From: a virus
Strand: one strand, 5' to 3'
IMG/VR virus record: IMGVR_UViG_3300029113_000006
Location: 1 to 57,109 of that record
Length of the DNA stretch: 57,109 bases
Shown: piece by piece, positions 1 through 57,109 of the stretch
Layout: the number at the start of each line of letters is the position of its first letter
Position numbering within the stretch: the stretch's first letter is position 1
Position numbers and translations under genes: made by a program
Notes under the pieces: model-generated
Seen by the model: the letters and a program-made list of their open reading frames with translations, nothing else
What the model was told of the DNA's origin: nothing
Database searches by the model: none

Positions 1-99
1 ATCTTATCCTGCGTGAAGTAGTCCATCATGCTGCGGAAGTTGGCGTTGCAGTTGTCCACGATGGCACGAGCGTTGTCTGCGATAGCCTGACGGGTAGCG
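1..99. repeat. Terminal overlap: 1-99 identical to 57011-57109 (circular assembly signature)
   Basis: Direct comparison of window ends; the minus-strand reading frame is preserved across the junction. Confidence 0.95.
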
Positions 100-6468: not shown

Positions 6469-6589
6469 TGTGTCCTCCTGTTCTGCCTGTTCTTCTGCCA
6501 AAGCGGCAAAGAACCGGCTCAAAAAGTTGAAAAGTGCGGTCAAAAATGTGTTGTTTATTGCGATCACCCCCAATGTCAAAGAGTAGGCA

Positions 6590-17651: not shown

Positions 17652-17995
17652 CAGCCGATAACACCTACTCTCGGAACAACTTCATTCAGCAGGGACTGCG
17701 CCACATCGGAGCTTTCCCACACACGAGTGATGCCGTTGTTGGTATAGCTCGTCTGTCCATTTGCGCCGATGTGGTTGTACAGTTCCGCTGCAATGCGTAT
17801 CTGCAACGACTGATACTGCAAGGGCAGCTCGTCCGGTCTGTTGCCGAAGGGGTAGCCCTGTGCAAATATCTTGTCTTTAGCGAAATCAAGCAGCAGGTCG
17901 AAAAGTGGGTAGTCTTCGTCCGTGATTTCACGGTCAAGTGCAGGAGCAATGTACTGCCCCAGCTTGACTGCCGCTTCAGAATACTGGTCTCCCAT
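17651..17995 (-). CDS. Head-tail connector (gp6-like)
   Basis: Start moved to ATG 17995; first gene after the capsid. Confidence 0.5.
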   Translation of the reverse strand: MGDQYSEAAVKLGQYIAPALDREITDEDYPLFDLLLDFAKDKIFAQGYPFGNRPDELPLQYQSLQIRIAAELYNHIGANGQTSYTNNGITRVWESSDVAQSLLNEVVPRVGVIG

Positions 17996-18023
17996 GCTGA
18001 TTTCTTCCTTTCCCATTAGTAGG

Positions 18024-19100: not shown

Positions 19101-19116
19101 GTTGTTTTACCTCCTA

Positions 19117-19485
19117 TTAAGCGTTCACGCTGATGTTGTCACGGCAGAAAATGCCGGGGACGGCGGTCTTAAGTGCCTTGATTGCGTCAGCGTCAAAGGT
19201 GAAGCTGGAACTTGCTGCCGCCTTCTTGGTGTCGATAACACCACGAATCAGCAGGGAAGCATTGGGGTTTTCTGCCGGGTCAACGTCATAAAGCAGAATG
19301 CCGTCAGCGTTGATGGTCTTAGAACCAGTTTCGCCAGCAGCAACAGCTTTCTTGCCAGCCAGCGTCATAGGATAGCCAGCCTTAACCGCAGCAGTTTCGG
19401 TCACGGTAAAGGGAATGGCGGTGTAGTCATTGGAAGCAAGGATGGTATCGTTGATTCCGTTGACCGTGTTTCGGGTAAACTTCAT
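19117..19485 (-). CDS. Head decoration-like protein
   Basis: Start moved to ATG 19485 (AAGGAGG); 122 aa between the scaffold and capsid genes. Confidence 0.45.
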   Translation of the reverse strand: MKFTRNTVNGINDTILASNDYTAIPFTVTETAAVKAGYPMTLAGKKAVAAGETGSKTINADGILLYDVDPAENPNASLLIRGVIDTKKAAASSSFTFDADAIKALKTAVPGIFCRDNISVNA

Positions 19486-20172: not shown

Positions 20173-21681
20173 TTATTCACCCTCTGTTTCTTTATTGGTG
20201 CTGTCAGCCTGTCCGTCTAATGTTTTGTTGACGTTAACAACTTGTTCAGGCTTCGGCTTCTGTGGTTTCGGAGCTTTGCCGTCCTCACCCAGCTTGCCAG
20301 CGGCAATCAGGAAGGGCTTGCTCATTTCATAAGCAGCCTGCGGGTCAGGGAACAGACCGGGCGTAGTGAACGCCAACTGAGGGTCAATGCTCTGACTGAG
20401 CATCTGTGCAAAAATCTGAACCTTGCTTTGCTGATTGTCGTACTGACGGCGGGGCAGCTTGATGTTGATGTCACTTGCCATCAGCTTAGAACCAGCCGTA
20501 TCACGCAGGATTTTCAGCATCACAGACAGGCTTTGGCGTTCCGAGAACTTGAACATATTCTCGTACTGCTGCGCCCTTGCTTCAGTGTGATTCCAGCCGT
20601 TGCGGACGATAACTGCGCCCACGTTGTCAGACGTTGCGTTCTCACTGCCAGTTGCACTAGGCATGGCAGTCAGGCTACGGTACACGTTTAACATGGAATC
20701 AAGCAAGGTCTGGCTCTGCTGCTGGTCAAGCTCGTTTGCAATCTGTGAGACAGAAGCAGGCAGACCAGCGGTAGACTTCAGACACATTGCGCCCAGTTCC
20801 TTGACCTTGTTGAGCGCATCCTCGTCCACAAGGCAGTTCGTAAACACCATGATGGACTGGATGAACTGCGCCACACCGTCCAGACGATTGCTTTCCAGGT
20901 CGTTGATGGAATCCAGAACAGGGATAGCCGGTTCAAACAGACCCATACGCTCCGGGTTGAGCTTGTATTCGACCATCGGTAGCATTCCAAGGGAGTGGTT
21001 TTCCGATTTCGTAACCTTGCCATTGTCGATTTCAAAGTACTGGTTCGGCGTATACACGCAAATCAGGTCGTTCAGGTCATTCTGATAATTGCGTGGGATG
21101 TGCAGCACGTTGGCGATGGGCTTGTGCCCAATACCGGAGTTGTAAATCACATACGCCATATCCGGGTCGGGAACATCCACCAGCAGGGGCGTTTCGTCCG
21201 GGTAGTTGCCGTTGTACCCCTTGTCAGGAAGAACAATGCGGTATCCCTGTCCGCACTCTAACATCCACTGCCAGAGCCGCCGATCAAGCGCGTCCTTGCC
21301 CTCATACTGCAAAGCATTTGACAGGCGGGCGATTTCCTCACCGTCACCTATTGCCGTTTCAGACCGCACATAAGAGCAGGGAGTGCCACTCATGTAACCT
21401 GTGTAGAAACCCACGCATTCATTGGCATGGTTCTCTACAATGCGATTGGTGATTTCAGCGTGGTACTCCTTTGTGCGGAGGAGGACAGGCTGGCTACCCA
21501 AGTAGTAGTTGTGCAGAAAGCGAATCTCGTTCTTGTTCAGCAGATGAATAGGCTCTGCCTTGCCCATGACCACTTTCAGCACATTTGCTTGATTGATTTC
21601 TGTTTCCGGCGTTTCAATCGGTCTACGTCCGGTCAACGGCTCATTCAAAAAACCGTCAACAATCATCTGATACTCAGCCAT
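20173..21681 (-). CDS. Portal protein
   Basis: 502 aa from ATG 21681 (AAGGAGG); lies between the terminase region and scaffold. Confidence 0.8.
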   Translation of the reverse strand: MAEYQMIVDGFLNEPLTGRRPIETPETEINQANVLKVVMGKAEPIHLLNKNEIRFLHNYYLGSQPVLLRTKEYHAEITNRIVENHANECVGFYTGYMSGTPCSYVRSETAIGDGEEIARLSNALQYEGKDALDRRLWQWMLECGQGYRIVLPDKGYNGNYPDETPLLVDVPDPDMAYVIYNSGIGHKPIANVLHIPRNYQNDLNDLICVYTPNQYFEIDNGKVTKSENHSLGMLPMVEYKLNPERMGLFEPAIPVLDSINDLESNRLDGVAQFIQSIMVFTNCLVDEDALNKVKELGAMCLKSTAGLPASVSQIANELDQQQSQTLLDSMLNVYRSLTAMPSATGSENATSDNVGAVIVRNGWNHTEARAQQYENMFKFSERQSLSVMLKILRDTAGSKLMASDINIKLPRRQYDNQQSKVQIFAQMLSQSIDPQLAFTTPGLFPDPQAAYEMSKPFLIAAGKLGEDGKAPKPQKPKPEQVVNVNKTLDGQADSTNKETEGE

Positions 21682-21767
21682 GTGTTCCTCCTTTCCGGCA
21701 AAATAAAAAGCGCAGCAAGACAAACCTGTTAAGGTCTATCTCACTGCGCCAAAAGTGCGCCTTAAAC

Positions 21768-22499: not shown

Positions 22500-22577
22500 T
22501 GGTGCTGCATAATGGATTTGAACCAATGTATGCCCGGTTATGAGCCGGATGCTCTAGCCTGACTGAGCTAATGCAAC
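22500..22577 (-). tRNA. tRNA with CAT anticodon (Met/fMet or Ile2), CCA encoded
   Basis: Hand fold: GTTGCAT/ATGCAGC acceptor, TAGCTCAGTCAGGCTAGAGCA D-arm, TCCGG-CTCATAA-CCGGG, GGTTCAAATCC T-loop, ACCA. Confidence 0.8.
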
Positions 22578-22999: not shown

Positions 23000-24667
23000 T
23001 CAAAAAGGCCTCTTGACAGGCTCAATTTTACTGATTCCGTTGTACAATTCATCGGCAAGCTGTGCCAGACTATCCGGTGCGTCATCGTGCGGAACTTTAC
23101 CAAGCTGCGTGAACATCGTTACCTGTTCCATGAATGCCTTGTACTCTTTCGACTGGTGCTTCTCGTCAAGGAAGTAGAACCGCTTGATGTCCGGCGCATA
23201 CTGGATGATTCTGGATAACTTGCTTTGACCACTTGGCGCACGTTGGCTGCGGACAGAGCAGTGATAGCCTTGCTGCCGGAGCTGGCTGTCTACCACGTCA
23301 CAATATTCATCGCCGCCGTTGTTGGCTTCGCCACGCACCACGTTGATTTTATGCTGGATGATTTTGCCCACGACTTCCGGTCTGGTCACGGTCTTGTCGC
23401 CGTTATTGAACACAAGGTCGGGGATGAACACAGCATCGCCGTACACATAAGCAATAGGACAGGCGGTGAAGTCCCCGCCACCCCATGCAATATCCATGAC
23501 CATGAGCTTGCGATCGGGTTCACCATCAGGCAGCACGCCGTTATAATACCATAGTTCATCGGCAGGGAACAGCAAGCCTTCACGCACATAAGGCTTGCCC
23601 ATGTACTTTGCCCACCATGTTGCATCGTCAATGCTGGCTTTCATGTCTGCATAGTAGGCATCGTCAAATCCCACGCCGTAGTCATAATTGAAATTGCTGT
23701 GTCCGTTCTCATCCACAGCGGGAATCACCCGGAATCTGTACTTTGGATTGTCTGCGTACTGGTTCTGGATGCGCCCCAAAGGGTCAAGCACGTTCCAGCG
23801 TGTGCCGACCATCAGCTCCAATGCGCCTTGCTTTTTACGGTCTTTTAGCTGGTTTAGGTAGGCATCGTACTTGTTGTTCAGACGCTCAACGTTCAGACTT
23901 TCTTCCAAATCCTCAATCAAGTCATCGCTGTACAGAACGCCGCCCTCGCCGATTTCAACAGCACCTGTCAGCGTACCGCCAATGGAGCGGCAAGTCAAAG
24001 TGGGAAAACGCTTTTTACGGTTCAGGTCAACGCTTTCGTCCTTTGCGCTCTTATCTACAAGCTGAACGTCAGGGAAGATTTTCCCCCAATTATAAGTCAC
24101 GGGGTCAGTGATGATAGACAGCACTTCGCCGTAGAAGCCGTTGGTCAGCTTGTCAGAATGTCCGCTCATAACCGATGCAACGTCAGGGCGGTTGCCCATC
24201 AGCCATGTGATAAAAAATATACAGAGCGTACTTTTTCCAGTTCTCGGGGGCTGGCTGACCCCAAGAAATTCTACACGATGGAAAAACAAGTCCTCTAGGT
24301 CACGAACCAACGTCAAAAGCACTTTTCTTCTCGGCTGATAGAACTTCTTTTCCGGCGCACGGTTCCATTCAAGGTAGATGCAATAGCTGTCAAATACATC
24401 CTTTGCTTCAAACAGGTACGTTCGGCTGATAATATCATAGACCTTTGCCACGTCCTCGCCTGTTTTCATCTTGCCCATCATGGCTGCACAGACAGAGCGC
24501 AGCTCCCCAGAGTATTTGTAGGTATCGAACCGCTTGTCTTGCGGCAGAGCATCTCTAAGGTTCACGACCGCCTGAAACCAGTCCTCATAGACCTGTGCTT
24601 CGGTCGGATTCTGCTTTGCATACGCTTTGATGCTGTCAATGATGGCGATACACTGTTTTGACTGCAT
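23000..24667 (-). CDS. terL: Terminase large subunit
   Basis: Walker A-like PPRTGKST, ATPase plus nuclease size; start ATG 24667 is preferred over the TTG at 24757. Confidence 0.9.
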   Translation of the reverse strand: MQSKQCIAIIDSIKAYAKQNPTEAQVYEDWFQAVVNLRDALPQDKRFDTYKYSGELRSVCAAMMGKMKTGEDVAKVYDIISRTYLFEAKDVFDSYCIYLEWNRAPEKKFYQPRRKVLLTLVRDLEDLFFHRVEFLGVSQPPRTGKSTLCIFFITWLMGNRPDVASVMSGHSDKLTNGFYGEVLSIITDPVTYNWGKIFPDVQLVDKSAKDESVDLNRKKRFPTLTCRSIGGTLTGAVEIGEGGVLYSDDLIEDLEESLNVERLNNKYDAYLNQLKDRKKQGALELMVGTRWNVLDPLGRIQNQYADNPKYRFRVIPAVDENGHSNFNYDYGVGFDDAYYADMKASIDDATWWAKYMGKPYVREGLLFPADELWYYNGVLPDGEPDRKLMVMDIAWGGGDFTACPIAYVYGDAVFIPDLVFNNGDKTVTRPEVVGKIIQHKINVVRGEANNGGDEYCDVVDSQLRQQGYHCSVRSQRAPSGQSKLSRIIQYAPDIKRFYFLDEKHQSKEYKAFMEQVTMFTQLGKVPHDDAPDSLAQLADELYNGISKIEPVKRPF

Positions 24668-24772
24668 AAAAAAATAGGCACCCCCTACCTGAAAATGTAA
24701 AGAGTGCCTACAACTGCACAAAAATTGAATATTCGGTTTTATTTTAGTTGCGGACAATGTCAGCTGAAAATA

Positions 24773-25418: not shown

Positions 25419-26075
25419 TTAGCGGTGGCTTGTGGTTGGGCTGCCGCTATTTTTATTTGCGTATCTTTCGACACGCTCATACCAAGTGGATTTCCCTATG
25501 CCAAGCTGCTTGCAGCACTCTTTTACAGTGATTTCGCCTTTTTTCTGTTGTTTTAATAGGCTTTCAAACTGCTGCTCGTCAACTTGCTTTTCCTGTCTTC
25601 CGAAGCTACGGCCTGTTCTGGCCGACACTCTCTTGCCATCAACAATAGGCATGGCAGCTATGCCCTCCGCCTGACGTTGCTTGGTTTTTTTGCGTTCCTG
25701 TTCAGCTACTGCGCCCAAAACCTCAATAAGGATGTTGTTTACCATTTCCAGCACCCACGTCTGGTCTTGGAAGTCAATAAGCGTGGTCGGAATGTCGAGA
25801 ATGCGAACAATCACGCCTTTTTCTTTGAACCATTGAAGTTCTCGCTTCATTTCGTCTTTGTCACGCCCGAATCGGTCAAATTCCTTGACGATGACTTCAT
25901 CCCCAGCCTTGACAGTCTCTTTCAATCGTTTATACTGCGGACGGTCAAAGCTGCTGCCTGTCATTTTATCACAAAATACGTTCTCGTCCGGGATGTCAAA
26001 CCGATCTCGTGCGATTTTAAGCTGTCTTGCAAGATTTTGCTCTTTGCTCGACACTCTCGCTAAGAAATAACGCAT
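25419..26075 (-). CDS. Small serine recombinase (resolvase/invertase family)
   Basis: MRYFLARVSSKEQNLARQ... catalytic Ser motif; C-terminal HTH (GKSTWYERV); about 218 aa. Confidence 0.85.
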   Translation of the reverse strand: MRYFLARVSSKEQNLARQLKIARDRFDIPDENVFCDKMTGSSFDRPQYKRLKETVKAGDEVIVKEFDRFGRDKDEMKRELQWFKEKGVIVRILDIPTTLIDFQDQTWVLEMVNNILIEVLGAVAEQERKKTKQRQAEGIAAMPIVDGKRVSARTGRSFGRQEKQVDEQQFESLLKQQKKGEITVKECCKQLGIGKSTWYERVERYANKNSGSPTTSHR

Positions 26076-26087
26076 TGCAATCACCCG

Positions 26088-26333
26088 TTACTTGTCAATT
26101 TTGATTTTATAAGAGTATTCATCCAGTTCCTTCGTGGTTTTCGGCCTAAGAATGACTTCGTAATCCAGTGCTTCTGCAAATTCGCATAATTTTTTCACAG
26201 ACATATTGTTGCCCTTCAAACGTTCTCCAACGCCAGAAGCAGACTTGTAACCCATATCGTTAGCAAGAACTTCCATCGTTTTAGGAGGGCGGCTCTTAAT
26301 CATAATGTCTTTAATGATTTCGGTGACAGTCAT
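26088..26333 (-). CDS. HTH (XRE/Cro-like) regulator upstream of the resolvase
   Basis: Start ATG 26333 lies downstream of the predicted promoter; MTVTEIIKDIMIKSRPPKTMEVLANDMGYKSASGV... Confidence 0.55.
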   Translation of the reverse strand: MTVTEIIKDIMIKSRPPKTMEVLANDMGYKSASGVGERLKGNNMSVKKLCEFAEALDYEVILRPKTTKELDEYSYKIKIDK

Positions 26334-26374
26334 TTTAATTTCCCCTTTCTTATAACGGCTCTTTTTCTGTATCC

Positions 26375-26403
26375 ATGTTACCATGTTTTCATGGAAATGT
26401 CAA
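26375..26403 (-). promoter_or_regulatory. Candidate promoter TTGACA-17-TAACAT for the HTH-resolvase operon
   Basis: Reverse complement of 26375..26403. Confidence 0.35.
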
Positions 26404-26431: not shown

Positions 26432-26463
26432 TACTCTAGTATGTATAAATACATACTAGAGTA
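26432..26463. repeat. Perfect inverted repeat, 14-bp arms with a 4-nt spacer (TACTCTAGTATGTA taaa TACATACTAGAGTA)
   Basis: Read directly; sits between divergent promoters. Confidence 0.9.
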
Positions 26464-30660: not shown

Positions 30661-30886
30661 GGGGGTGCAAGCTGTGATACTATCCGCACTTCTGTTTTTC
30701 TTCTGGTTTTTCTCTGCACTTTTCAAGGCCAGTAAATGACCAGATCGGACACTTTAGCGGGGCTGCACCGTAAAGCAACCCCGCCCCAGCCCAAAAGGGC
30801 AAAAATATTTTTGCAAGTCCTGTTTTTGGGGCCTGCGATATGATATACTGTAAAAAAGGGCAAAAGCTCGGAAAGAAGATGGCAAA

Positions 30887-32806: not shown

Positions 32807-32908
32807 CCTCAAACAATTTATTTGTTTGAGGGGGGGAGTTAGGGGGATTATAAGGGGTAATAGGGGTTGTAGGGGAAAGAGGGGGAAGAAAGGGGGGAAG
32901 ATTGGATG
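32807..32908 (+). other. 10-bp-stem hairpin followed by a C-free 94-nt tract with seven G4-G7 runs (G-quadruplex/R-loop-prone)
   Basis: CCTCAAACAA-tttat-TTGTTTGAGG, then GGGGGGGagttaGGGGG...GGGGGG; no C from 32815 to 32908. Confidence 0.85.
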
Positions 32909-32946
32909 CAAACGCATCATGTGCATCCATTCGCATGCAAACGCAT
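32906..32946. repeat. Two exact ATGCAAACGCAT boxes 29 bp apart, flanking GCATCCATTCGCAT (origin-like)
   Basis: Read directly; related boxes lie at 35423..35494. Confidence 0.8.
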
Positions 32947-33877: not shown

Positions 33878-35101
33878 TTACATCCACACGCATTCTTTGA
33901 ACTGCTGTGTTTCCATCTGGAACGTAATGTCCAGTGACCCCACGTTGCCCTCTTTGTTCTTCTCAAGCGCAAAGTGATAATGCTGCTCTGGTCGTTTTTT
34001 CGTGGTCACGTTCTGTGCCAGCAGGATAATTGCATCTGCGTCCTGCTCGATCTGTCCGCTCTCTCGCAGGTCTGCGGCAGTCGGTGGGATACCCGCTCTT
34101 GCGGTTTCTCGATTGAGCTGCGCAAGAGCTACCACAAGCGTTCCTGTGGACTGTGCGAACTCATGCAGTGCCATGCTGATTTCTGTGACGGCACTGTATC
34201 GGTCTTTCGCTCCGGCTTGATGAATAAGCTGCAAATAGTCGATGAACACCACTTTTGCTTGCATCCTGATGGACTGCGTTCTAATCCATCCAACGCTCTT
34301 ACCAGCAGCGGAGCGAACGAACAGCGGATATTTCTTGATGGCTGCTAGTCGGTCAAGTTCGTTAATGCTGACGGTCTTGTTTTTGACCGTATGCAACGGT
34401 ACGCCTAGCTGGTTTGCTATGATACGAGCATAGAGTGTATCCGGGTCTGTCTCTAGGCTGAAATACGCCACCTTGCGTCCGTTCTTGGCTATTTCACAGG
34501 CAAGTTGCAGAGACAGAGCGGTCTTACCAGCAGACGGTCTTCCGCCGATCACAACGAAGTTTCCCGGCACAAGATGCAAGTTGTTATCCAGCACTCTGAG
34601 CCCTGTGCTGATATACTCCGGCTTATCATCCAGCTTGCGGATGTAATTGTCTATGCCATCGCACATCGGAATGAAATCGCTTCTCTCGTTGTGCAGGTTG
34701 ATGGCTTCGCCTAGCTGCTCATAGATGCCTGTCAGGTCTGCATACCTTGTCGAGCCATCAACGATTTTGAACGCAATCTCTCTGGCTCTGGATAACGCTG
34801 CCTGTTCCTTGACGATTCCAGCCCATCCAAGCATCATGTCATGGGTGACATTGCGGATGAACTCTGCGCCAAAGGCATCTAGGCATTCACCCATTGCTTT
34901 CTTGCAGTTATCGTACCGCCCCATGACTTCTACCGGGTTCCATTTGTCGTTGTGTTCCCAATAACCACGAATGGCAGCGAATGTATCACGCAGTTCTGGG
35001 CAAAAATCGTCGATTTTAAGGTCTTGTAGCACATCGGCGTATTCCGAGAACGTGAGGACTGCTCCCAGCAGGATGTATTGGGTTTGATTTTCAATATTCA
35101 C
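33878..35101 (-). CDS. dnaB: Replicative DNA helicase DnaB
   Basis: GGRPSAGKTALSLQLA Walker A, IDYLQLI, 407 aa. Confidence 0.9.
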   Translation of the reverse strand: MNIENQTQYILLGAVLTFSEYADVLQDLKIDDFCPELRDTFAAIRGYWEHNDKWNPVEVMGRYDNCKKAMGECLDAFGAEFIRNVTHDMMLGWAGIVKEQAALSRAREIAFKIVDGSTRYADLTGIYEQLGEAINLHNERSDFIPMCDGIDNYIRKLDDKPEYISTGLRVLDNNLHLVPGNFVVIGGRPSAGKTALSLQLACEIAKNGRKVAYFSLETDPDTLYARIIANQLGVPLHTVKNKTVSINELDRLAAIKKYPLFVRSAAGKSVGWIRTQSIRMQAKVVFIDYLQLIHQAGAKDRYSAVTEISMALHEFAQSTGTLVVALAQLNRETARAGIPPTAADLRESGQIEQDADAIILLAQNVTTKKRPEQHYHFALEKNKEGNVGSLDITFQMETQQFKECVWM

Positions 35102-35766
35102 CGCAGAAAGTCTCCCTCGTCAGGCAATTCAGCCATAGTTTGCTGATAGCCACCGTTCCAGTCCTTCACGTTGCGCATCCAGTTCCGTGCAGCAGCTTTC
35201 CAGTCTTTCATAGGCGACTTGCCGACTTTCCAGCCATTTGCCGTGAAGTGGTCAACAAACCGCTCTGCTTCCAGTCCGCCGTATCCCTTTTCGGAAAAGT
35301 AGGATTTGGCTTGCTCGATAGTCGGTGCCTTGAAGCGTTTGACTTCGTTGGTATTTTTCTTTTCACATTTTTCTTTTTTATCAGATTCAGATACAGAATC
35401 AGATACAGATAAGGCATCGTTCGCATCCATTTGCATATTTTTCATACCAGTGCATGCGTTTGCATCATTGGTATGCGTTTGTATGCATTTGCATTTTTCG
35501 TCGTTCCAACGCTTATTTGCACTCCGTCTGTTTTTCTTGATTCGCTCCTGTCTTTTCTGTGCATTCATATCATCGAACGCCTTAACAACTTTCCAGAGCA
35601 TCCGCATAGCACGGTCGTTGTCGTATGCTGGCTCAAGTCCAGTCTCAACGTAGTGTGCGTAGTTGCGGACGAATGCTCCAAATTCCTCGTCTGTCAGCTC
35701 GTTCATCGCATGGACGTGTTCCAGCAGAAGAATCATTGATGTTCTCGGCTTGCGTTCCTGCTCCAT
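35098..35766 (-). CDS. Replisome organizer / DnaD-like replication protein
   Basis: Start ATG 35766 (AAGAGGA); N-terminal organizer-like region and a C-terminal ...FVDHFTANGWKVGKSPMKDWKAAARNW motif; directly upstream of dnaB. Confidence 0.6.
   Translation of the reverse strand: MEQERKPRTSMILLLEHVHAMNELTDEEFGAFVRNYAHYVETGLEPAYDNDRAMRMLWKVVKAFDDMNAQKRQERIKKNRRSANKRWNDEKCKCIQTHTNDANACTGMKNMQMDANDALSVSDSVSESDKKEKCEKKNTNEVKRFKAPTIEQAKSYFSEKGYGGLEAERFVDHFTANGWKVGKSPMKDWKAAARNWMRNVKDWNGGYQQTMAELPDEGDFLR
35423..35494. repeat. Cluster of ATGC-N4-GCAT boxes inside the organizer gene (candidate lytic origin)
   Basis: GCATCCATTTGCAT, ATGCGTTTGCAT, ATGCGTTTGTAT, ATGCATTTGCAT. Confidence 0.6.
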
Positions 35767-35768
35767 AT

Positions 35769-35951
35769 TCAATCCTCTTTGTAGCGTTTGTTCCATGCTT
35801 CGACAGCTTTTTCCTTGCCAAATGTTGCAGAAGTACTCACCCCGCATTTTCCGCAGACTACCCAACTAGCCATGTCAACGTTAAGTGGATGAATCACTTT
35901 TACAGTCGGCGGTTCCGCACCGCAGAACGGGCATCTCTTGAGTTCTGTCAC
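35769..35951 (-). CDS. Lar-like restriction-alleviation zinc-ribbon protein
   Basis: CPFCG...CGKCG...AVEAWNKR pattern; GTG start. Confidence 0.5.
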   Translation of the reverse strand: MTELKRCPFCGAEPPTVKVIHPLNVDMASWVVCGKCGVSTSATFGKEKAVEAWNKRYKED

Positions 35952-44599: not shown

Positions 44600-45160
44600 T
44601 TAAAATGGCAAATCTTCACTGTCCTGAATTACGGCAAAGTCGCCGGTATCAGGCGAAGAACCAGACCCACCAGCCAGCGTTTTCTTCGGTCTGACCTCAT
44701 AGTCACCGGAACGAATCTTGTCAACACTGGTGAAACGGTCAACGACAAGCTTCGTCTTGATGTTCCCATCGTTACCCATGTATTCTTCCTCACGGAGAAC
44801 CACACCGACCAGCTTGCCACGCAGGGTCTTTTCATCGTTATTGAACTTATAACCGGGATTGGACTGCTCCACAGCGGTGATAAAGCCCTTGAAGAACGGC
44901 AGTGCCTTTTCCTTATAGCTCTTGATGGTCTTGCCGCCCCATGCCCACTCGCCCGGATTCAGCTTGCCACGCTCGATAAGGGAAGCGGTCTGCTCGCGCC
45001 AGTATCCCTTGAACTCGCCCTCTGCGACTTCCCACTCGATGTTCAGACGCTCCTTTGCGGATTCGTCCGTTGCCTTGCAGATACCGGCAACATAGCCGCC
45101 AACAGGCAAGTCACGGCGCTCGGTAGCTTCCTGTACGTCATTCCAGTTGATGTTCTTCAT
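44600..45160 (-). CDS. DUF669-like protein (partner of Sak4-type recombinases)
   Basis: Position next to the ATPase; MKNINWNDVQEA...GGYVAGI... Confidence 0.55.
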   Translation of the reverse strand: MKNINWNDVQEATERRDLPVGGYVAGICKATDESAKERLNIEWEVAEGEFKGYWREQTASLIERGKLNPGEWAWGGKTIKSYKEKALPFFKGFITAVEQSNPGYKFNNDEKTLRGKLVGVVLREEEYMGNDGNIKTKLVVDRFTSVDKIRSGDYEVRPKKTLAGGSGSSPDTGDFAVIQDSEDLPF

Positions 45161-45163
45161 CTG

Positions 45164-45796
45164 TTACTCTCCTTTGTTATCCGGCTGAACCGGGATGTTG
45201 TAATACTCACGGATGGTCTTGTCTACGACTGCGAGGTCGTTCTCGATCAGCGCATCGTTGAACATCCCCAAAGGGGTTTTCACGGTGTCCATCCCATCAT
45301 TGCGAGTGCTGAACAGGTATCGCCCATCCTGCACAACAGTTTTCAGAACGATGGTGAAGTACCCTTCCACGCAGACCTTTTCGTCCAACATTTTTCCGAC
45401 AGTTTTGAATTTGTCTCCACCATTTTCTCCGCATTCGCTGTGCCCGAAAAAGTAGACCACCACATCGTCCGGCAGCTCCTTCGCCCGCATCAGCAGGGCG
45501 TTGAAGTTGGCTGCCATGTCGGTGAACTTCTGGTATCCGGCGACCTTTGCGTTCCGCATGAACTCGCCGGTCATAAGGTAGGTGGCATCATCAATGACGA
45601 TGGACTTACGCTTGGTGCTGTGGATTGCGACATCAATCTTGCCGTAATCATTGGTAATGTACGTTTTCATGCTGCTTCGGAACGGCAGCGGCTTGCCAAG
45701 CACGTTGATAACCGCTACCTGTTCCGGGTCAAAGTTCCGAAGCGAAGCGGATTTTCCGCTGCCGGAATGACCATAGACCATTACTAATACTGCCAT
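45164..45796 (-). CDS. AAA/RecA-like ATPase (Sak4-like recombination protein)
   Basis: VMVYGHSGSGKS Walker A; about 210 aa. Confidence 0.7.
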   Translation of the reverse strand: MAVLVMVYGHSGSGKSASLRNFDPEQVAVINVLGKPLPFRSSMKTYITNDYGKIDVAIHSTKRKSIVIDDATYLMTGEFMRNAKVAGYQKFTDMAANFNALLMRAKELPDDVVVYFFGHSECGENGGDKFKTVGKMLDEKVCVEGYFTIVLKTVVQDGRYLFSTRNDGMDTVKTPLGMFNDALIENDLAVVDKTIREYYNIPVQPDNKGE

Positions 45797-47611: not shown

Positions 47612-48361
47612 TCAGTCCTCCGCTTTCTGGATTTTCTTTGCTTTCAAGAAGAGGTTTACGAAGTAGACTTGGCCGCGACCGGAAATCTTAGGAGTGCGGT
47701 TAATGGAAATGTGGTCGCTGTGTTGAATCGTGGTCTCTTTGATTTCAAACAGCCCCATCTCCATACTACGCTGCGTAGGCAAGTTGTAGTCGCTTCGTTT
47801 CGGGTCTTTAATGAGGTAGCCGTTCTTTCGCATCCAGTCGAACAAACGGTTCTGTCCGATGTTAATGCCATTTTGCGAAAGCAGCTTTGCAAGCTCACCA
47901 ACGAGAATGGATTTTTTGCTTGCTGAAACTGCGTCAGCGAAAAGCGCTTTCGGCTTCATGGTTTCAATCTGCTTGTCCTTCTCTTCCAGCTCTTCGTGCG
48001 CTGCGATCAGCGCAGTTGCAAGGAGATGCGAGCGGGTGAGCTGCGGCTGTTCTGTCAGTTTCTTTTCCATTTCGTTGAACGCTGCAATGTACTTGAGCTT
48101 CCACTCAAGAGCAGCCTTGCCGGTAAAGCCCATAGCCAGCAGGGTGAAACCGTCACGGTTCATCAGGTAAGCCCTCTGTTCCCTGCCGTAGCTGTCCGGC
48201 GCTGTGGTTTCAAAGAACATCTCCCCAAAATTGGGGACATCTTTTTTGATTGCATCGATGTCACGCATCACATGATCGTGACGCTTTTCAAAGTTCTCGG
48301 CAATCTGGCGGCTGGATGCTACCGGTTCGCCGCTTTGCATAGATAAGACAATGTCGCTCAT
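47612..48361 (-). CDS. Rha-family regulator fused to a KilAC-type antirepressor domain
   Basis: SSRQIAENFEKRHDHVMRDID... (Rha) and a C-terminal KilAC-like region. Confidence 0.7.
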   Translation of the reverse strand: MSDIVLSMQSGEPVASSRQIAENFEKRHDHVMRDIDAIKKDVPNFGEMFFETTAPDSYGREQRAYLMNRDGFTLLAMGFTGKAALEWKLKYIAAFNEMEKKLTEQPQLTRSHLLATALIAAHEELEEKDKQIETMKPKALFADAVSASKKSILVGELAKLLSQNGINIGQNRLFDWMRKNGYLIKDPKRSDYNLPTQRSMEMGLFEIKETTIQHSDHISINRTPKISGRGQVYFVNLFLKAKKIQKAED

Positions 48362-48555
48362 TTTCCCTCTCTTTCATTCAACAGCTCTTCCAGAGCTTCT
48401 CTCACCTTAGCTTCCGCATTTTTAGGCTCACGCTTACCGTTCAGGATTTTTCCCAAGTATTCCGGTGCGCATCCCATTTTTGCAGCAAGCTCTCTGATTT
48501 CGATGTTGTTAACGTGAAGCGTTCCCACAACATCGCCTGTCCACTTAGGAAGCAA
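48358..48555 (-). CDS. Cro-like HTH regulator, first gene of the early operon
   Basis: TTG start after AAAGGAG; divergent from the CI-like gene. Confidence 0.6.
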   Translation of the reverse strand: MLPKWTGDVVGTLHVNNIEIRELAAKMGCAPEYLGKILNGKREPKNAEAKVREALEELLNEREGK

Positions 48556-48572: not shown

Positions 48573-48750
48573 GTTCTAGTACTTGAACTTTTTGAAAGAA
48601 TATGATAATATTATGGTGTCAAGCAAAAACATTATCGAACGTTCTTCTATTTGTTCAAAGCCTTTAATTTGTTCTACCGATTGAACTCGGTATCTTTATT
48701 AAAGCACAAGTGGTAGAACTTTTCAAGTGTTTTTGTTCAAGTGGTAGAAC
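48573..48750. promoter_or_regulatory. Genetic-switch region with four 16-bp operators GTTCTAnnnnTTGAAC
   Basis: 48573-88 GTTCTAGTACTTGAAC; 48671-86 GTTCTACCGATTGAAC; 48704-19 and 48735-50 inverted (..CAAGTGGTAGAAC); plus-strand promoter TTGAAC-17-TAATAT at 48583-48611. Confidence 0.6.
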
Positions 48751-48785
48751 TTTGTCATCTTGTACAAGCACTGGGGGTAAGTTTT

Positions 48786-49121
48786 GTGTTTTTTGACAAT
48801 TTCGTAAAACTATGCGAAGAAAAGGGAGTAAAGCCGTCTCGTGCTTTAACCGATGCAGGCGTTCCAAGATCTGCTTATAGCTATTGGAGAAGGGAAGCTG
48901 GCATCGGGAACGATGCAAAGCCGACAAACCAAAACGCCGTAAAGCTTGCTCAGTACTTTGACGTTACTGTGGATTACCTTCTCACTGGCGACCGAAAAGA
49001 AAACCCGCCTCAGCAGCCGCAAAGTGAAGTCGATGCAGCAGTGGAGCGGATTAGAAGAAAACTTGAATCTATGCCGACAGCGCAGCGTGAAGCGCTGATG
49101 AACCTGATCGAGAAGATGTGA
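48786..49121 (+). CDS. CI-like XRE-family repressor
   Basis: GTG 48786 is preferred because operator 4 covers the ORF-track start; ...SYWRREAG...AVKLAQYFDVTVDYLLTG. Confidence 0.65.
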   Translation: MFFDNFVKLCEEKGVKPSRALTDAGVPRSAYSYWRREAGIGNDAKPTNQNAVKLAQYFDVTVDYLLTGDRKENPPQQPQSEVDAAVERIRRKLESMPTAQREALMNLIEKM

Positions 49122-50560: not shown

Positions 50561-51154
50561 ATGGATGAATATTTGGTAAGAACGGCCAAAGCATTAGAGA
50601 TGGCACGGATGCGTTCCGGCTTGAGCCAGCAGAAGTTGGCGGCAAAGATGGGTGTAAATCGTGGCACGATAGCAAATTGGGAGCAAGGTCTGGCAGCCAT
50701 CTCCCTGCCGATGGCTATGCGCTGGTTCACCTGCTGCGGCGTATCAGTGGCTCGATACATGGACGCTTGCGTTCATCCGGGACTACTTGAGCACCTTGAG
50801 GATGACCTTTCCGATTTGGAGAAACGGAAAATTCTCATAGATGCTATGATGGAGTGCTCCTCCTATGAGATAGATGCCTTACTGTACATCCGGTACGGTG
50901 ATCACGGTTCAGACCACATCGGTGTGTTGACGGAGATTCTGGCAAATCTTCACACGCCGTTGAAGGACAGGGTCGCTGTCTGCCGGATGGTGTCTGGTAG
51001 CTATGAGATGGCACAGGCTACCGGAACAGACCCAGACCCGAACGGAACCGCCCCAAAGATGGAAATTCTCTATCAGGCGCAGGATGCTGGAACGGAAGCT
51101 GCTATGAAGTCCAACGATTCCTATACTGTGAATCCAAATAATATAAGCGGCTGA
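50561..51154 (+). CDS. XRE-family HTH regulator with C-terminal domain, upstream of the plasmid-type origin
   Basis: SGLSQQKLAAKMGVNRGTIANWEQG. Confidence 0.65.
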   Translation: MDEYLVRTAKALEMARMRSGLSQQKLAAKMGVNRGTIANWEQGLAAISLPMAMRWFTCCGVSVARYMDACVHPGLLEHLEDDLSDLEKRKILIDAMMECSSYEIDALLYIRYGDHGSDHIGVLTEILANLHTPLKDRVAVCRMVSGSYEMAQATGTDPDPNGTAPKMEILYQAQDAGTEAAMKSNDSYTVNPNNISG

Positions 51155-51196
51155 TTGTCGAATTATCGAAGTTTTTGAGGTATACAGGGGGACGCG

Positions 51197-51740
51197 CTCC
51201 ACTTTTTGTACACAATAGACCTGTTATAAATATAGTTTTAGGTTGTCATTTTGTCCCCCATAGAATCGTAAATGGTGGATTTTTGCGGATGTAATTAACG
51301 GACTTTCGTAAAATTTTAGTTCATCAAAGAGTGACTTGTCAATTCGTCCCCTATTGGTGTAATTGCACTCCATTTTCTGTACACGATAGAACCGTCAGGT
51401 AGATTATAGGGCTTGATGGACGTTTCTTATTCAGCAAAAGATCAGCAAAAGAAGTTGTCGTTTTCCACAATCTGCCCGTTGAAGAGAAGAAATTGTTGAA
51501 AATGTATCGTCGCCACTATTTGATGATGATTATTTATCTCTTGTTTATCTCTTGTTTATATATATAGTAAGAACGTGTACAAAAAGTGGAGCATTGTGTA
51601 CATAAAGTGGAGTAACGTGTACAAGAAGTGGATGGTATCGTGTACAAAAAGTGGAGTAACGTGTACAGAATGTGGAAGTCGATTGTTGAAAAATAATTGT
51701 GTACAGAATCATTGACGTGTACACGATACAGTGGTATAAT
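51197..51740. repeat. Iteron origin: 5 direct 17-bp iterons (21-23 bp phasing), 2 degenerate copies, 2 inverted distal copies, AT-rich 11-bp tandem repeat
   Basis: GTGTACAAAAAGTGGAG at 51575 and 51640, variants at 51596, 51617, 51661, 51699, 51717; inverted at 51197 and 51368; TTATCTCTTGT x2 at 51534-55. Confidence 0.85.
51712..51740 (+). promoter_or_regulatory. rep promoter TTGACG-17-TATAAT overlapped by the last iteron
   Basis: Read directly. Confidence 0.55.
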
Positions 51741-51765
51741 AGGGTGGAAGAAATGAGGTGATGCA

Positions 51766-52860
51766 ATGCCAGAATTGACAGGAAACAACCTTGTCGAAAA
51801 GAGCAAGGCATTGGTTTGGGCGAAGTTTACGGACTACACAGCAGGCGAGCTTCGGCTGCTTGAGGTCTATCTGAGCCGTATCAATCCGAGAGACCCCGAA
51901 AGCTCCAACGTGTCGTTTACGCTGGCTGAATATTGCAAGCTGCTGGATTTGAAGCTCAATTCAAAGAACTTGAAGTCTCAGGTTAAGCACTTTTTGGGCA
52001 ACGTGGTTTCAGTGCCATTGAATGCAGATGGAACAGAATATGTGATGTATCCGCTGTTCACAAAGGCAGAGGTCAAATTCAATCGAGAATCCTTGTCCTA
52101 TGACGTTTCAATCAACTGTAATCCTGACTTGCGGCCTGTGTTTTTCGACATTGCAAGAAGCGGTTACGTCAAATACCGTCTGCGCTATACGATTGGGATG
52201 AAGCAGCAAGCATCTATTCTGATGTACAGCATGATTCGAGATTGGATGAATCGCTCTCTAACATCGAACAAGATTGGTTTGAAGCAGTTGCGTGACCACT
52301 TGGGGGCAAACGATGCAAGTTATGACGACTTCCGAGCTTTACGCCGCAGAGTTCTTGAACCAGCAGTGGAAGAGATCAGCAATGTTTCAGACATTGTCGT
52401 TGACTTTGAAAAGATTTGCACAGGGCGAAAGGTAGTAGCAGTTGAGTTCCGATTCGGGTACAAATCCAAGCAGCCCGTCATAGATGCCGATTCTAGCGAG
52501 GTTGATTGTGAGACGGCTAATTCCAAGCCGGAAATCAAAAAAGCTGCCAGAAAGCCCCGCACAAGCGGATACGAAGGGTACGACTGGTCTGTGTGCGATG
52601 CGCTGTCGGTTCAAGAGTGTATCGAGGTCGCAAAGGTAGTTGAGGTAAAGATGATGGAAGAGCATCCATCTATTAAGCTACCAAAGCGGAGAGATGCAGT
52701 CTACGACATTGTAAAGGCCGCGTGTGCAGATATTCTTTCAATCAACCGTGACCCTTGGCCTGACCATCCGAAGCGGTATCTGATTGGTAGCTTGAAGAAA
52801 GACGGCGCGATTGAAGAGTATCTTCCGGCATTTTATGAGATTGACGCACTGCAAAAGTAA
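51766..52860 (+). CDS. Plasmid-type replication initiator (Rep_3/RepB-like winged-helix family)
   Basis: NNLVEKSKALVWAKF..AGELRLLEVYLSRI... N-terminal pattern; iterons immediately upstream. Confidence 0.7.
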   Translation: MPELTGNNLVEKSKALVWAKFTDYTAGELRLLEVYLSRINPRDPESSNVSFTLAEYCKLLDLKLNSKNLKSQVKHFLGNVVSVPLNADGTEYVMYPLFTKAEVKFNRESLSYDVSINCNPDLRPVFFDIARSGYVKYRLRYTIGMKQQASILMYSMIRDWMNRSLTSNKIGLKQLRDHLGANDASYDDFRALRRRVLEPAVEEISNVSDIVVDFEKICTGRKVVAVEFRFGYKSKQPVIDADSSEVDCETANSKPEIKKAARKPRTSGYEGYDWSVCDALSVQECIEVAKVVEVKMMEEHPSIKLPKRRDAVYDIVKAACADILSINRDPWPDHPKRYLIGSLKKDGAIEEYLPAFYEIDALQK

Positions 52861-52893
52861 TCAGACATAGAAAATAAAAGAAAGAGTGATAAA

Positions 52894-53673
52894 ATGGCAA
52901 AAATTATAGCTGTCGCCAACCAGAAGGGCGGCACAGGAAAGACTACCACAAGCACCTGTCTGGCTGGTGCGTTGCAGTTGCTTGGCAAGAAAGTCCTGCT
53001 GGTGGACTGCGATGCCCAGTGCAACGCAACGGACACTTACGGCGCACAGACAGAGGATGTATGTACCCTGTTTGATGTGATGACCCGGCAGGGTACGGTA
53101 GAGGAAGGAATCCAGCACTGTGAAGCGGGTGACATTCTGCCGTCTGACAACGCATTGAAGGACATTGACGAGCAGCTTGTCCGGGACATGGGCAAGAACT
53201 TCCGGCTGCGAGAAGCTCTTGAAAGCGTGTCTGAGCAGTACGATTACATTGTGCTGGACACTCCCCCGCAGCTTGGTCTTGCGCTTGTGAACGCACTGAT
53301 CGCCGCCAACAGCATCATTGTGCCCATCACAGCAGACCGATACGCACTGGCTGGTTTGAGCCAGCTTTCGCAGACCATCGGCGATGTTCGCAGATATTTC
53401 AATCCGACTTTGAAGATTGAAGGTCTGCTTCTGAACCAGTACAAGAGCCGTGAGAACTTGTCCAAAGAGGTTGTGGAGCAGCTTCCTGTGATTGCACAGA
53501 GCATGGGAACAACCCTGCTGGATGTGAAGATTAGACCGTCTATGGGCGTTCGTAAGGCACAGGCAGAGCGCCACAGCCTGTTTAGTGGCGACACGGCAAA
53601 GAGTACCAGCGCAGAGGATTTCAAGGCTTTGGCGAAGATGATTGTGGAGGGTGACAACAATGAGAATGATTGA
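52894..53673 (+). CDS. parA: ParA/Soj-family partition ATPase
   Basis: Deviant Walker A: IAVANQKGGTGKTT. Confidence 0.9.
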   Translation: MAKIIAVANQKGGTGKTTTSTCLAGALQLLGKKVLLVDCDAQCNATDTYGAQTEDVCTLFDVMTRQGTVEEGIQHCEAGDILPSDNALKDIDEQLVRDMGKNFRLREALESVSEQYDYIVLDTPPQLGLALVNALIAANSIIVPITADRYALAGLSQLSQTIGDVRRYFNPTLKIEGLLLNQYKSRENLSKEVVEQLPVIAQSMGTTLLDVKIRPSMGVRKAQAERHSLFSGDTAKSTSAEDFKALAKMIVEGDNNEND

Positions 53674-53926
53674 TAAAGAAGCACTGCTAGAAAGGCTTGA
53701 TTTGTTTATTTGCGAGTATGACAGAATGGATCAAGAAGAAGCGATAGAAGCAATAAGAACCGTGATTAAAGCCGTCAAAATGATGCCAGAAACCCGGCAC
53801 TCAAAGTGGGTTAGAACAAAAAACTTGATTATATCTTACAAATGTTCTATTTGCGGATATGAAACAGAAGTTGCACAAATGAGATATTGCCCGAACTGTG
53901 GCGCACGGATGGAGAATGTGAAATGA
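53660..53926 (+). CDS. Zinc-ribbon protein
   Basis: CSICG...CPNCG. Confidence 0.45.
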   Translation: MRMIDKEALLERLDLFICEYDRMDQEEAIEAIRTVIKAVKMMPETRHSKWVRTKNLIISYKCSICGYETEVAQMRYCPNCGARMENVK

Positions 53927-54495
53927 AATCAACCAGCAAAAAATCCACAGGTTTGCTTGGCGGGTTTGATTTTCAGCCTATTTTTTCGGAACAGCAATTA
54001 AGCCGAAGTGAGCCAAAGGAAGAAGAAGTAAGCCAAACAAAGCCGAATAATGCCGAACGAGAGTTAATTAAGCCTAGTGATGCCAGAGACAGCCATGCAC
54101 AGCCGAGTGAAGCAGAATTAAGCAGTATTAAGCCGAAGCAAGCCAAAGACAGCGAAACACAGCCGAACAATGCCATAGTCAGCGAAAGTAAGCCAAAGAA
54201 GTTGAAACAGGCGAAAGAAGTTCAACGTCTTATCGAACAAGGCAATGTTCCCGGCGCACTAGCCGAAGCTGGTCTGACAAAGAAAAAAATCCCGATGCCG
54301 GAATCGCATCAAGGTGTTGCAAGTGGCGATGGCAAGCGTTCAAAGCGCATTACCATCCTTATGAGCGAGGAAGAGCGCAAGTACATCAACCGTGAAGCCA
54401 GACGGCATGGAATGACGATTGGACAGTTCGTGTACGCTCTGGCAGTTGCGGCGGCAGAGGGAAAGATTGAGTTGGAGGATTTCTTGGAGGATTGA
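53923..54495 (+). CDS. Repeat-rich protein with a C-terminal ribbon-helix-helix (ParG/omega-like centromere-binding candidate)
   Basis: KRITILMSEEERKYINREARRHGMTIGQFVYAL. Confidence 0.5.
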   Translation: MKSTSKKSTGLLGGFDFQPIFSEQQLSRSEPKEEEVSQTKPNNAERELIKPSDARDSHAQPSEAELSSIKPKQAKDSETQPNNAIVSESKPKKLKQAKEVQRLIEQGNVPGALAEAGLTKKKIPMPESHQGVASGDGKRSKRITILMSEEERKYINREARRHGMTIGQFVYALAVAAAEGKIELEDFLED

Positions 54496-55717: not shown

Positions 55718-56356
55718 TTACTTATCAGCAATGCAATCCCAGTAGAGATACGCCTTACCATCTGCGGCATCTGCGTCCTCAAGGAACGCCTTTGCCATGT
55801 CAGCGTAGAAGCCCGGGGTGTCAACGGACTGGCGCTTTGCGACCTGACAATAATCCGAGTACATCATGTTCATAACAGCCCAGAAATCGTTCGGGTCACA
55901 AGTGATATTACGCTGTTTGGCAACGTCCTGCGTCTGTTCCAGCGTCCAGTGACAGCCTTTCGTACCGTCAGCATTTACCATGCTGTCGCACCATTCCTCT
56001 GCTTCATCGTGGGTGAGGTGCTGGCGTGGCATCTTGATGGAGCGGCTGTCCGCACCGCCATGTTCGTACTGCCCAGACCGCTTGTCCCAGTCTCCGTTCT
56101 GCGAAAAGCCAATTTGCGGCATTCTGCGCCCATTCTCTACGTCAGGGTAGCGGGGGATAGGGTAGGGGTCAATGTAGCGGTTCTCCTCCTGCGGATAGTA
56201 AGGATGGCGGTCATTGCCGTTTTCCAGCTTACGCAGACGGCGTTCCAGCTCACGTTCCCTGCGGTCACGCTCTTCCTCAAGGCGGTCACGTTCCGGCTCA
56301 CGGTCTTTGTCGTGTTCACGGAGCATCATCATGCGGCGAAAATTGTTCTTGCCCAT
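55718..56356 (-). CDS. 212-aa protein with a hyper-charged R/E/D plus Tyr/Pro-rich N-half and a globular C-half (operon gene 5)
   Basis: AGGAGG RBS; ...DREPERDRLEEERDRRERELERRLRKL... Confidence 0.6.
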   Translation of the reverse strand: MGKNNFRRMMMLREHDKDREPERDRLEEERDRRERELERRLRKLENGNDRHPYYPQEENRYIDPYPIPRYPDVENGRRMPQIGFSQNGDWDKRSGQYEHGGADSRSIKMPRQHLTHDEAEEWCDSMVNADGTKGCHWTLEQTQDVAKQRNITCDPNDFWAVMNMMYSDYCQVAKRQSVDTPGFYADMAKAFLEDADAADGKAYLYWDCIADK

Positions 56357-56826: not shown

Positions 56827-57109
56827 TTAGCAGCCGCAGCAGTTCACGCCCACGTTGGGGTTTGCCACCTGATAAGCGGGAATCGGACGAGGATTGACCC
56901 GGTTCAGGATGGTATCGGTCTGCTGGGACATCACGGTGGTCAGAAGCGCATTCTGACGATCCTGAGAAGCGGCGAACTTCAGGCTCTGGTTCTCAGCGGT
57001 CAGAGTGGCAATCTTATCCTGCGTGAAGTAGTCCATCATGCTGCGGAAGTTGGCGTTGCAGTTGTCCACGATGGCACGAGCGTTGTCTGCGATAGCCTGA
57101 CGGGTAGCG
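56827..57109 (-). CDS. C-terminal part of the junction-spanning 289-aa CDS (same gene as 1..686; 57011-57109 duplicates 1-99)
   Basis: ORF 56827..57069 stays open upstream to the window end; ends ...NPNVGVNCCGC. Confidence 0.7.
   Translation of the reverse strand, partial: ATRQAIADNARAIVDNCNANFRSMMDYFTQDKIATLTAENQSLKFAASQDRQNALLTTVMSQQTDTILNRVNPRPIPAYQVANPNVGVNCCGC

Follow-up and report, generated by a model that had tools for sequence, protein, structure and literature searches.

Phage P1, a 94-kb myovirus of Proteobacteria, persists in Escherichia coli as a circular plasmid prophage. It combines an iteron-controlled initiator and control iterons with a ParA-type partition system and Cre/lox dimer resolution near the packaging genes, and it possesses a separate lytic replicon and repressor-plus-antirepressor immunity. 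In this study, we analyzed the IMG/VR virus record IMGVR_UViG_3300029113_000006 over its full 57,109 nucleotides (hereafter the window), and in particular a plasmid-like maintenance module at 50561-54495. In our view, the window probably represents the entire circular genome of a temperate phage of siphovirus-like type, a phage-plasmid whose prophage is kept as a low-copy circular plasmid. Such an element had been proposed in an initial annotation made from the sequence alone, and the proposal is supported by the plasmid replicon, the partition genes, the lack of an integrase match and the existence of stand-alone relatives. The P1-style logic invoked at that time also holds, in that the window's iteron replicon, ParA, recombinase and repressor/antirepressor genes parallel those of P1, with a lytic replicon as a likely further counterpart. 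The overall logic of the two elements is thus alike, but no sequence relationship between them was detected. P1 pairs a large type Ia ParA with a helix-turn-helix (HTH) ParB, whereas the window has a short ParA and an adaptor with a putative ribbon-helix-helix (RHH) tail. P1 also relies on a recombinase of the tyrosine type, that of the window being of the serine type. Phage-plasmids are an established class, and surveys find many of them in gut and environmental data (bioRxiv 10.1101/2025.02.07.636470; PMC13221032). Gut surveys report that they are common but that their recognition usually depends on resemblance to a small number of reference elements (bioRxiv 10.1101/2025.02.07.636470). Most gut phage genomes are reported to behave as temperate, although many have no recognizable lysogeny genes (PMC11463441). 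The plasmid-prophage lifestyle is therefore already known; in the literature searched, however, we found no description of the window's very common phage family, and the lifestyle has not been described for it.

Three kinds of system are represented in the window: a Rep_3 iteron replicon, a ParA/RHH partition pair of the type Ib kind, with a putative RHH member, and a small serine recombinase. As in pPS10, F (RepE), pSC101 and R6K, an initiator with WH1 and WH2 domains is accompanied by tandem iterons of about 22 bp, and the inverted half-iterons over the rep promoter are shared with Rep_3 iteron plasmids; the A+T-rich region and the DnaA-box-like site are candidates for further common elements. 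Unlike those plasmids, the window carries its replicon inside a phage genome, and inverted iterons of two specificities lie upstream in every lineage of its family, whichever Rep is present. Small cryptic Rep_3 elements of gut Clostridia are represented by contigs of ~3.5 kb and a 6.9-kb plasmid of Mediterraneibacter gnavus, the initiators of which are 36-43% identical to that of the window; in contrast to the window, such small Rep_3 plasmids and Rep-ParA contigs showed no phage genes in the stretches compared. The partition genes resemble ParF-ParG of TP228 and delta-omega of pSM19035, in which a short deviant-Walker-A ParA likewise precedes a protein whose N-terminal tail is flexible and whose C-terminus forms an RHH dimer, a putative feature in the case of the window. 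The adaptor is much longer, however (190 amino acids [aa] vs. about 70-76 aa in type Ib RHH adaptors), and the window further differs from type Ib systems in having a linker of 10-aa repeats whose copy number varies between strains, a small variable open reading frame (ORF) between parA and the adaptor gene, and no repeat array upstream of parA. The features of the maintenance module are as follows.

50561-51154, plus strand: XRE-family regulator of 197 aa, with an N-terminal HTH (HTH_3, E 3e-10, Pfam) and a C-terminal domain without a family
51197-51384, minus strand: inverted iteron block of four copies, arranged A' B' B' A', separating the XRE gene from the origin
51461-51469, plus strand: DnaA-box-like site TTTTCCACA, matching at 8 of 9 positions
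51533-51559, plus strand: A+T-rich 11-mer repeats TTTATCTCTTG, 2.5 copies, candidate DNA-unwinding element
51575-51677, plus strand: five tandem iterons (type A) at 21-23-bp spacing with the core GTGTACAAAAAGTGGAG, found by motif count
51696-51708 and 51714-51726: half-iterons flanking the rep promoter, candidate autorepression operator
51712-51740, plus strand: predicted rep promoter TTGACG-17-TATAAT, the top promoter-like candidate in this region, lying downstream of the iterons
51766-52860, plus strand: Rep_3 family initiator (WH1 and WH2), 364 aa (Rep3_N, E 2.9e-17; Rep3_C, E 1.2e-15)
52894-53673, plus strand: ParA partition ATPase, 259 aa (AAA_31, E 2.6e-54; CbiA, E 2.8e-24)
53642-53926, plus strand: small zinc-ribbon ORF between parA and the adaptor gene
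53923-54495, plus strand: putative centromere-binding adaptor, 190 aa, with RHH matches
53996-54195, plus strand: 10-bp repeat array of about 20 tandem units (AAnnAAGCCr) within the adaptor coding sequence

The regulator, the iteron origin, the initiator, ParA and the RHH-tailed protein all lie on the plus strand where the initial annotation had placed them, and the regulator keeps the same position in relatives. The assignment of the initiator to a Rep_3-like family was borne out by profile searches, with Rep3_N spanning residues 10-157 and Rep3_C residues 172-230, both above the gathering score. The protein also matches PHROG 4402 ("replication initiation protein") and 622 PLSDB plasmids under the same description, the best of them the 6.9-kb M. 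gnavus plasmid, while the nearest non-phage Rep cluster (43% identity) is found on plasmid-like contigs of ~3.3-3.6 kb. Upstream of rep, the iteron origin claimed from the letters was recovered as five tandem units plus two inverted copies (51197-51213 and 51368-51384). The GTGTACAAAAAGTGGAG-core motif occurs seven times in the window, always within 51197-51677, where 0.18 matches would be expected, and 0 of 100 shuffles reached seven; the set of five tandem iterons is unique within the 57 kb. Both the A+T-rich repeats and the DnaA-box-like site are upstream of the tandem iterons, and one relative (L038) has a perfect DnaA box, TTATCCACA (9/9), at the equivalent position. Judged by its layout, the predicted origin is a textbook iteron origin. 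Rep would bind the five iterons beside the A+T-rich, DnaA-box-like region and thereby initiate theta replication. The half-iterons around the promoter, which are arranged likewise in L038 and L042, form the layout usual for autorepression and are a candidate operator; through them, around the -35 element, Rep would repress its own promoter.

Comparison among relatives shows that initiator and iterons change together. In a lineage with a 58%-identical Rep, 22-bp repeats of a different sequence, GGGGGACAAAATGACAAG (type B), occupy the same position, and GGGGGAC/GTCCCCC half-sites surround that lineage's own -35 element. A third lineage, with a Rep 50% identical to that of the window, retains GTGTACA-type (type A) iterons and an inverted pair over the promoter. 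Both specificities are represented in the block between the XRE gene and the origin: its A' copies are at 51197-51213 and 51368-51384, and its B' copies, at 51242-51259 and 51335-51352, match the iteron of the type B lineage (two matches vs. 0.05 expected). Exactly A'B'B'A' followed by five type A iterons was found in 69 of 82 distinct upstream sequences, and both A' copies are retained in all six sequences with type B tandem iterons. Since the motifs are kept while the spacers between them have strongly diverged among lineages, both motif types appear to be under selection whichever Rep allele is present. The block is a candidate copy-control (handcuffing) locus or a candidate centromere, and in the former role the upstream inverted iterons would probably limit copy number. 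If the block does have dual specificity, the module could work with either Rep allele after recombination; alternatively, it could sequester the initiator of a competing co-resident phage-plasmid. Either role would amount to a built-in incompatibility or exclusion device between phage strains.

The deviant-Walker-A ParA of the initial annotation was likewise recovered by profile search, and the motif itself, KGGTGKT, can be read directly at residues 11-17. The protein is of the short type without an N-terminal HTH, its AAA_31 match beginning at residue 2. In most relatives, rep and parA are separated by an additional ORF of 79-94 aa (two in some; e.g., 11114-11365 in L001), and the one that was scanned gave no family match; in the window, the gap between rep and parA is only 33 bp. 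The zinc-ribbon slot downstream of parA is variable as well, encoding 50-143 aa in relatives and a DUF551 protein in some. The adaptor ORF extends from 53887 to 54495, but the true start is likely the ATG at 53923, because relatives have 190 aa. Its layout comprises a basic N-terminal peptide (MKSTSKKSTGLLGG), six 10-aa repeats and a putative C-terminal RHH. The RHH tail had been called from the sequence, and the search was positive, though weaker than those for Rep_3 and ParA: the C-terminal 53 aa scanned alone matched a NikA-like family at 28.0 bits (gathering score 27), and the next two matches were RHH families. A small adaptor profile compared with PDB ranked a CopG-family protein, ParG (1P94) and Arc at the top, at only E~0.16, and phmmer of the adaptor against PDB gave no match. 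A similar pair of ParA and RHH-tailed protein occurs on an Oscillospiraceae contig (L016). In the proposed mechanism, ParA and the adaptor would segregate plasmid copies, with the RHH dimer binding a repeat array and the basic N-terminal peptide activating ParA.

One candidate for that array lies within the adaptor gene itself. Identity at a 10-nt lag is 0.60 in the array vs. 0.33 in synonymous recodings (z 7.7, 0/5000) and equals that at a 30-nt lag; the DNA is far more periodic than its protein product demands. Across the population, the adaptor comes in lengths that differ by 10-aa steps (150, 160, 170, and 190 aa). Third-position variability is 0.065 in the array vs. 0.122 in the rest of the gene, a difference that is suggestive only, the 13 relatives compared being too similar to discriminate. 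The array may be a centromere within the gene or a slippage-prone linker; if it is a centromere, adaptor length polymorphism would be tied to centromere size. A joint reading, in which A'B'B'A' is a dual-specificity control locus, the 10-bp array is the centromere and the module would thus be more than a plasmid cassette taken over as such, is conceivable, but we hold it to be unlikely.

The absence of a tyrosine or large-serine integrase, as the initial annotation had it, was upheld by the searches made here. No match to PF00589 or PF07508 was obtained in a Pfam scan that covered the gene-model proteins of at least 55 aa, except three short or probably spurious ORFs and the antisense shadow ORFs. 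PHROG and NCBIfam scans of the window proteins without a Pfam assignment gave no integrase match either. The closest named phage by large terminase, Clostridium phage Maintenon (ON453900; host [Clostridium] innocuum), which is the nearest cultured relative albeit a distant one, is of similar size (57,045 bp), and its TerL is 52% identical to that of the window. In Maintenon, however, a tyrosine integrase adjoins the repressor at the end of the linear record, and no Rep_3 or ParA is annotated in the 50 kb inspected; a six-frame comparison of the window with this integrase revealed no similarity. The position of the Maintenon integrase seems to correspond to that of the rep-par module in the window, and because the positions read as analogous, the difference between the two phages would be a module swap.

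The assembly and the population pattern agree with an extrachromosomal circle. The first and last 99 bases of the window are identical (1..99 = 57011-57109), and the sequence is therefore a circular assembly with a unit length of 57,010 bp. The rep-par module is present in the same gene order in all 34 relatives examined in detail, 29 of which are on stand-alone contigs of 54.9-64.2 kb that have the gene at varying offsets, and two 55,428-bp contigs from sister samples have their TerL gene at different offsets. An integrated copy in related genomes, which would have spoken for a chromosomal prophage, was not seen: host genes were absent around the module in the 34 inspected neighborhoods, no contig longer than 200 kb occurred in 808 collection blocks holding one exact adaptor variant (the longest contig being 50-200 kb in 327 of them), and none occurred in 130 blocks for a 90%-identical Rep variant. 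This result covers the neighborhoods inspected and not the full length of a handful of 70-119-kb family contigs. In human-gut metagenomes, the phage family seems to be very common. At least 492 relatives are found in IMG/VR, the best 80 of them mostly 52-62 kb; TerL homologs number in the thousands, with identities of 96% or more among the best 120. Both IMG/VR and GenBank list relatives as viral genomes. The 4.2-kb DNA of the module gave no match in PLSDB and, among phage records, matched only two unannotated fecal "Bacteriophage sp." contigs.

A host could not be named, because a Rep profile scan of GTDB species representatives found no close relative; the best matches there, 39-41% identical, were on Faecalibacterium and Anaerotignum metagenome-assembled genome (MAG) contigs. 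A cassette of Rep, ParA (41% identity) and RHH-tailed protein is carried by an Oscillospiraceae isolate, on a contig of 29 kb, and also by Clostridium sp. CAG:964, and a resolvase-plus-Rep pair is present in an Anaerotignum MAG.

The remainder of the window is organized as a phage genome, the main features of which are given below.

5782-6600, minus strand: GH25 lysin, by family scan
11043-15092, minus strand: putative tape measure protein, 1349 aa, assigned by size and position (the sole Pfam match is weak and unrelated)
18024-19100, minus strand: capsid protein, Phage_cap_E, by family scan
20173-21723, minus strand: SPP1-type portal, by family scan
23000-24757, minus strand: large terminase TerL, by family scan
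25419-26084, minus strand: small serine recombinase of the resolvase/invertase type (Resolvase PF00239, E 2.6e-22)
26088-26384, minus strand: small protein without a family, co-transcribed upstream of the recombinase, within the swappable cassette
26432-26463: perfect 32-bp palindrome TACTCTAGTATGTAT-AA-ATACATACTAGAGTA, its 2-bp core being AA, which may be a crossover site or an operator
32905-32946, plus strand: second GATGCAAACGCAT-like cluster, in opposite orientation, in non-coding DNA downstream of dnaB
33878-35101, minus strand: DnaB-type replicative helicase of the early operon (DnaB_C, E 2e-51)
35098-35865, minus strand: DUF6291 protein overlapping the dnaB start, putative phage initiator/organizer
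35454-35495, minus strand: cluster of three GATGCAAACGCAT-like repeats within the DUF6291 gene that may act as a lytic origin
48358-48555, minus strand: Cro-like HTH protein, first gene of the leftward early operon (HTH_3 match in a concatenated query)
48741-49121, plus strand: CI-like repressor with an RstR/DicA-type HTH (NCBIfam phage_RstR, E 8.7e-7)

Gene calling and family scans place the late operon on the minus strand, where it also holds tail proteins and a weak holin match below the gathering score. The set of virion, packaging and lysis genes appears complete and intact. The siphovirus late module and the CI/Cro-type switch of the initial annotation are both recognizable, the former by TerL, portal, capsid and lysin, the latter by a Cro-like HTH gene that faces the RstR-like repressor gene. 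These two genes are divergent, with a gap of 185 bp between them. The repressor gene is the first of a plus-strand, lysogeny-side block that contains the maintenance module, so that the module is on the repressor's strand and the early genes are across the switch. Following the Cro-like gene, the minus-strand early operon encodes a Rha/ANT antirepressor, a Sak4 annealing protein and a C5 methylase, and further a Holliday-junction resolvase, the DUF6291 protein and DnaB; the genome has two antirepressor genes in all. Expression in the lysogen would come from the plus-strand block on the repressor side; once induced, the phage would switch to the leftward early operon, with its genes for antirepressor, Sak4 recombinase, methylase, DUF6291 and DnaB, and then to the late genes. 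Small minus-strand ORFs between the repressor and XRE genes were considered as a toxin-antitoxin pair and set aside, having given no family match. The recombination module is swapped in some relatives, which have ERF plus SSB (2300-3313 in L001) in place of the Sak4 protein and its 186-aa partner (44600-45796 in the window). Variation between strains further affects the repressor, the antirepressor and the ORF that separates parA from the adaptor gene.

The claim of a second, phage-type replication pair was only partly sustained: DnaB is solid, but the "replisome organizer" that was said to accompany it matches only a functionally unassigned PHROG and, in Pfam with the threshold relaxed to E<=1, DUF6291. 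The protein showed no similarity to Maintenon's annotated initiator and had no sequence match in PDB. Phage initiator genes often contain their origin, and all five GATGCAAACGCAT matches in the window fall into two 42-bp clusters, which bracket the DUF6291-dnaB pair. A separate lytic replicon is likely, and the DUF6291 protein is its putative initiator. In some relatives (L034, L035; 1634-2347), a gene for a RepA_N (PF06970) plasmid-type initiator is located just after dnaB, where the window has no such gene.

The small serine resolvase noted near 25419 was confirmed by its PF00239 match, and its catalytic serine is in the readable motif ARVSSKEQ. A single palindrome in the window has arms of 13 bp or more, and it lies just ahead of the recombinase operon. 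Where relatives carry a 29%-identical recombinase allele, the equivalent position holds another palindrome that is no less perfect (8445-8474 in L030). DNA inversion requires two sites, and one palindrome per genome would fit resolution better than inversion; for this reason, an invertase role was rejected as first choice. The enzyme would resolve plasmid dimers at the palindrome beside its own gene. The lox-cre locus of P1 adjoins pac and also helps to circularize incoming DNA. By analogy, the position of the window's cassette directly upstream of the packaging genes recalls that arrangement.

Several observations weigh against maintenance as a plasmid prophage. A virulent or very active phage likewise assembles as a host-free circle. 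Close relatives are absent from PLSDB plasmids and from GTDB species representatives alike, so that no lysogen is known. The RHH assignment consists of short, low-scoring matches, and for the centromere there are candidates only, the 10-bp array and the A'B'B'A' block. A few over-length contigs of the family occur in IMG/VR (70.9, 77.0, and 85.1 kb; IMGVR_UViG_3300045988_058719 of 70,880 bp, 3300029211_000009 of 76,952 bp, and IMGVR_UViG_3300045988_059198 of 85,140 bp) and elsewhere (76.8, 78.1, 93.8, 104.6, and 118.7 kb). One of them, the 104.6-kb ENA scaffold (ERZ28623810 scaffold_61, 104,563 bp; L034), leaves family sequence at the dnaB position; the adjoining DNA (L034 1-1510), including a DUF7666 gene, resembles no other sequence compared and could represent a chimera, a dimer or a host flank.

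Part of this evidence would suit a lytic or pseudolysogenic phage in which Rep_3 and the iterons are a normal early theta origin and ParA and the adaptor serve a transient carrier state or another role. Rep_3-like initiators do occur in phages, as PHROG 4402 attests, host-free circular contigs are produced by any actively replicating phage, and genome collections have yielded no lysogen. Against it stand the repressor/Cro switch and the two antirepressor genes, as well as the location of the rep-par genes on the repressor side, with a separate DnaB module in the early operon. Only an element that has to be inherited when cells divide would need a partition ATPase together with an adaptor and a resolvase cassette, and allelic Rep/iteron types at one locus are the pattern of plasmid incompatibility groups; on balance, we find this explanation improbable. 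Integration into the chromosome by a route that escaped recognition, whether through the small serine recombinase, a host Xer-type system or an unrecognized recombinase, would make Rep and Par leftover or accessory genes. The serine recombinase with its candidate single crossover site and the few family contigs exceeding unit length could be read in this way, but small enzymes of the resolvase/invertase type are not known to serve as phage integrases. When abundant gut bacteria carry integrated prophages, long host flanks are routinely assembled along with them, whereas the 808 and 130 blocks contained no contig above 200 kb and the 34 rep-par neighborhoods no host genes. The rep-par module is, moreover, intact and conserved, without decay, and integration of this kind seems highly improbable. 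Finally, a plasmid carrying a defective, non-infectious prophage remnant is hardly to be reconciled with a late module that is complete, intact and highly conserved across hundreds of variants (TerL at least 96% identical among the best 120), nor with the cataloguing of relatives as viral genomes in IMG/VR and GenBank, and we give this possibility the least credence of all.

If the family is indeed maintained as a plasmid prophage of an uncultured Clostridia host, it would provide a concrete and abundant case of integrase-free lysogeny in the gut. Lifestyle predictors based on integrases would label the family "virulent," and prophage finders that seek chromosomal insertions would miss it. With its Rep alleles and iteron blocks, the family would also offer a natural model of incompatibility among phage strains that circulate together.

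Other features of the window and its relatives were noted during the analysis. A 289-aa glycine-/glutamine-rich protein ending in CCGC (56827-57109 continuing at 100-686, minus strand) and a DUF7841 protein (55718-56356) are encoded between the maintenance block and the lysis genes and are kept in all relatives. Near the lysis region, the 62-kb relative L039 has a six-gene plus-strand insertion (17068-19479) that includes a GerE/HTH-like gene, and such cargo accounts for some of the length variation in the family. Matches to Serglycin in the Pfam scans were dismissed as an artefact of the glycine-serine (GS) linkers used for joining query proteins. A tRNA-Met (CAT) gene is present at 22500-22577 (minus strand), between the terminase and portal genes. 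Two structured RNAs were identified with Rfam: DUF3800-VIII at 1764-1827 (minus strand; 70.4 bits, gathering score 40.2), downstream of the tail-fiber genes, and RAGATH-5 at 30745-30795 (plus strand; 60.3 bits, gathering score 50), in an accessory region of mixed strands.

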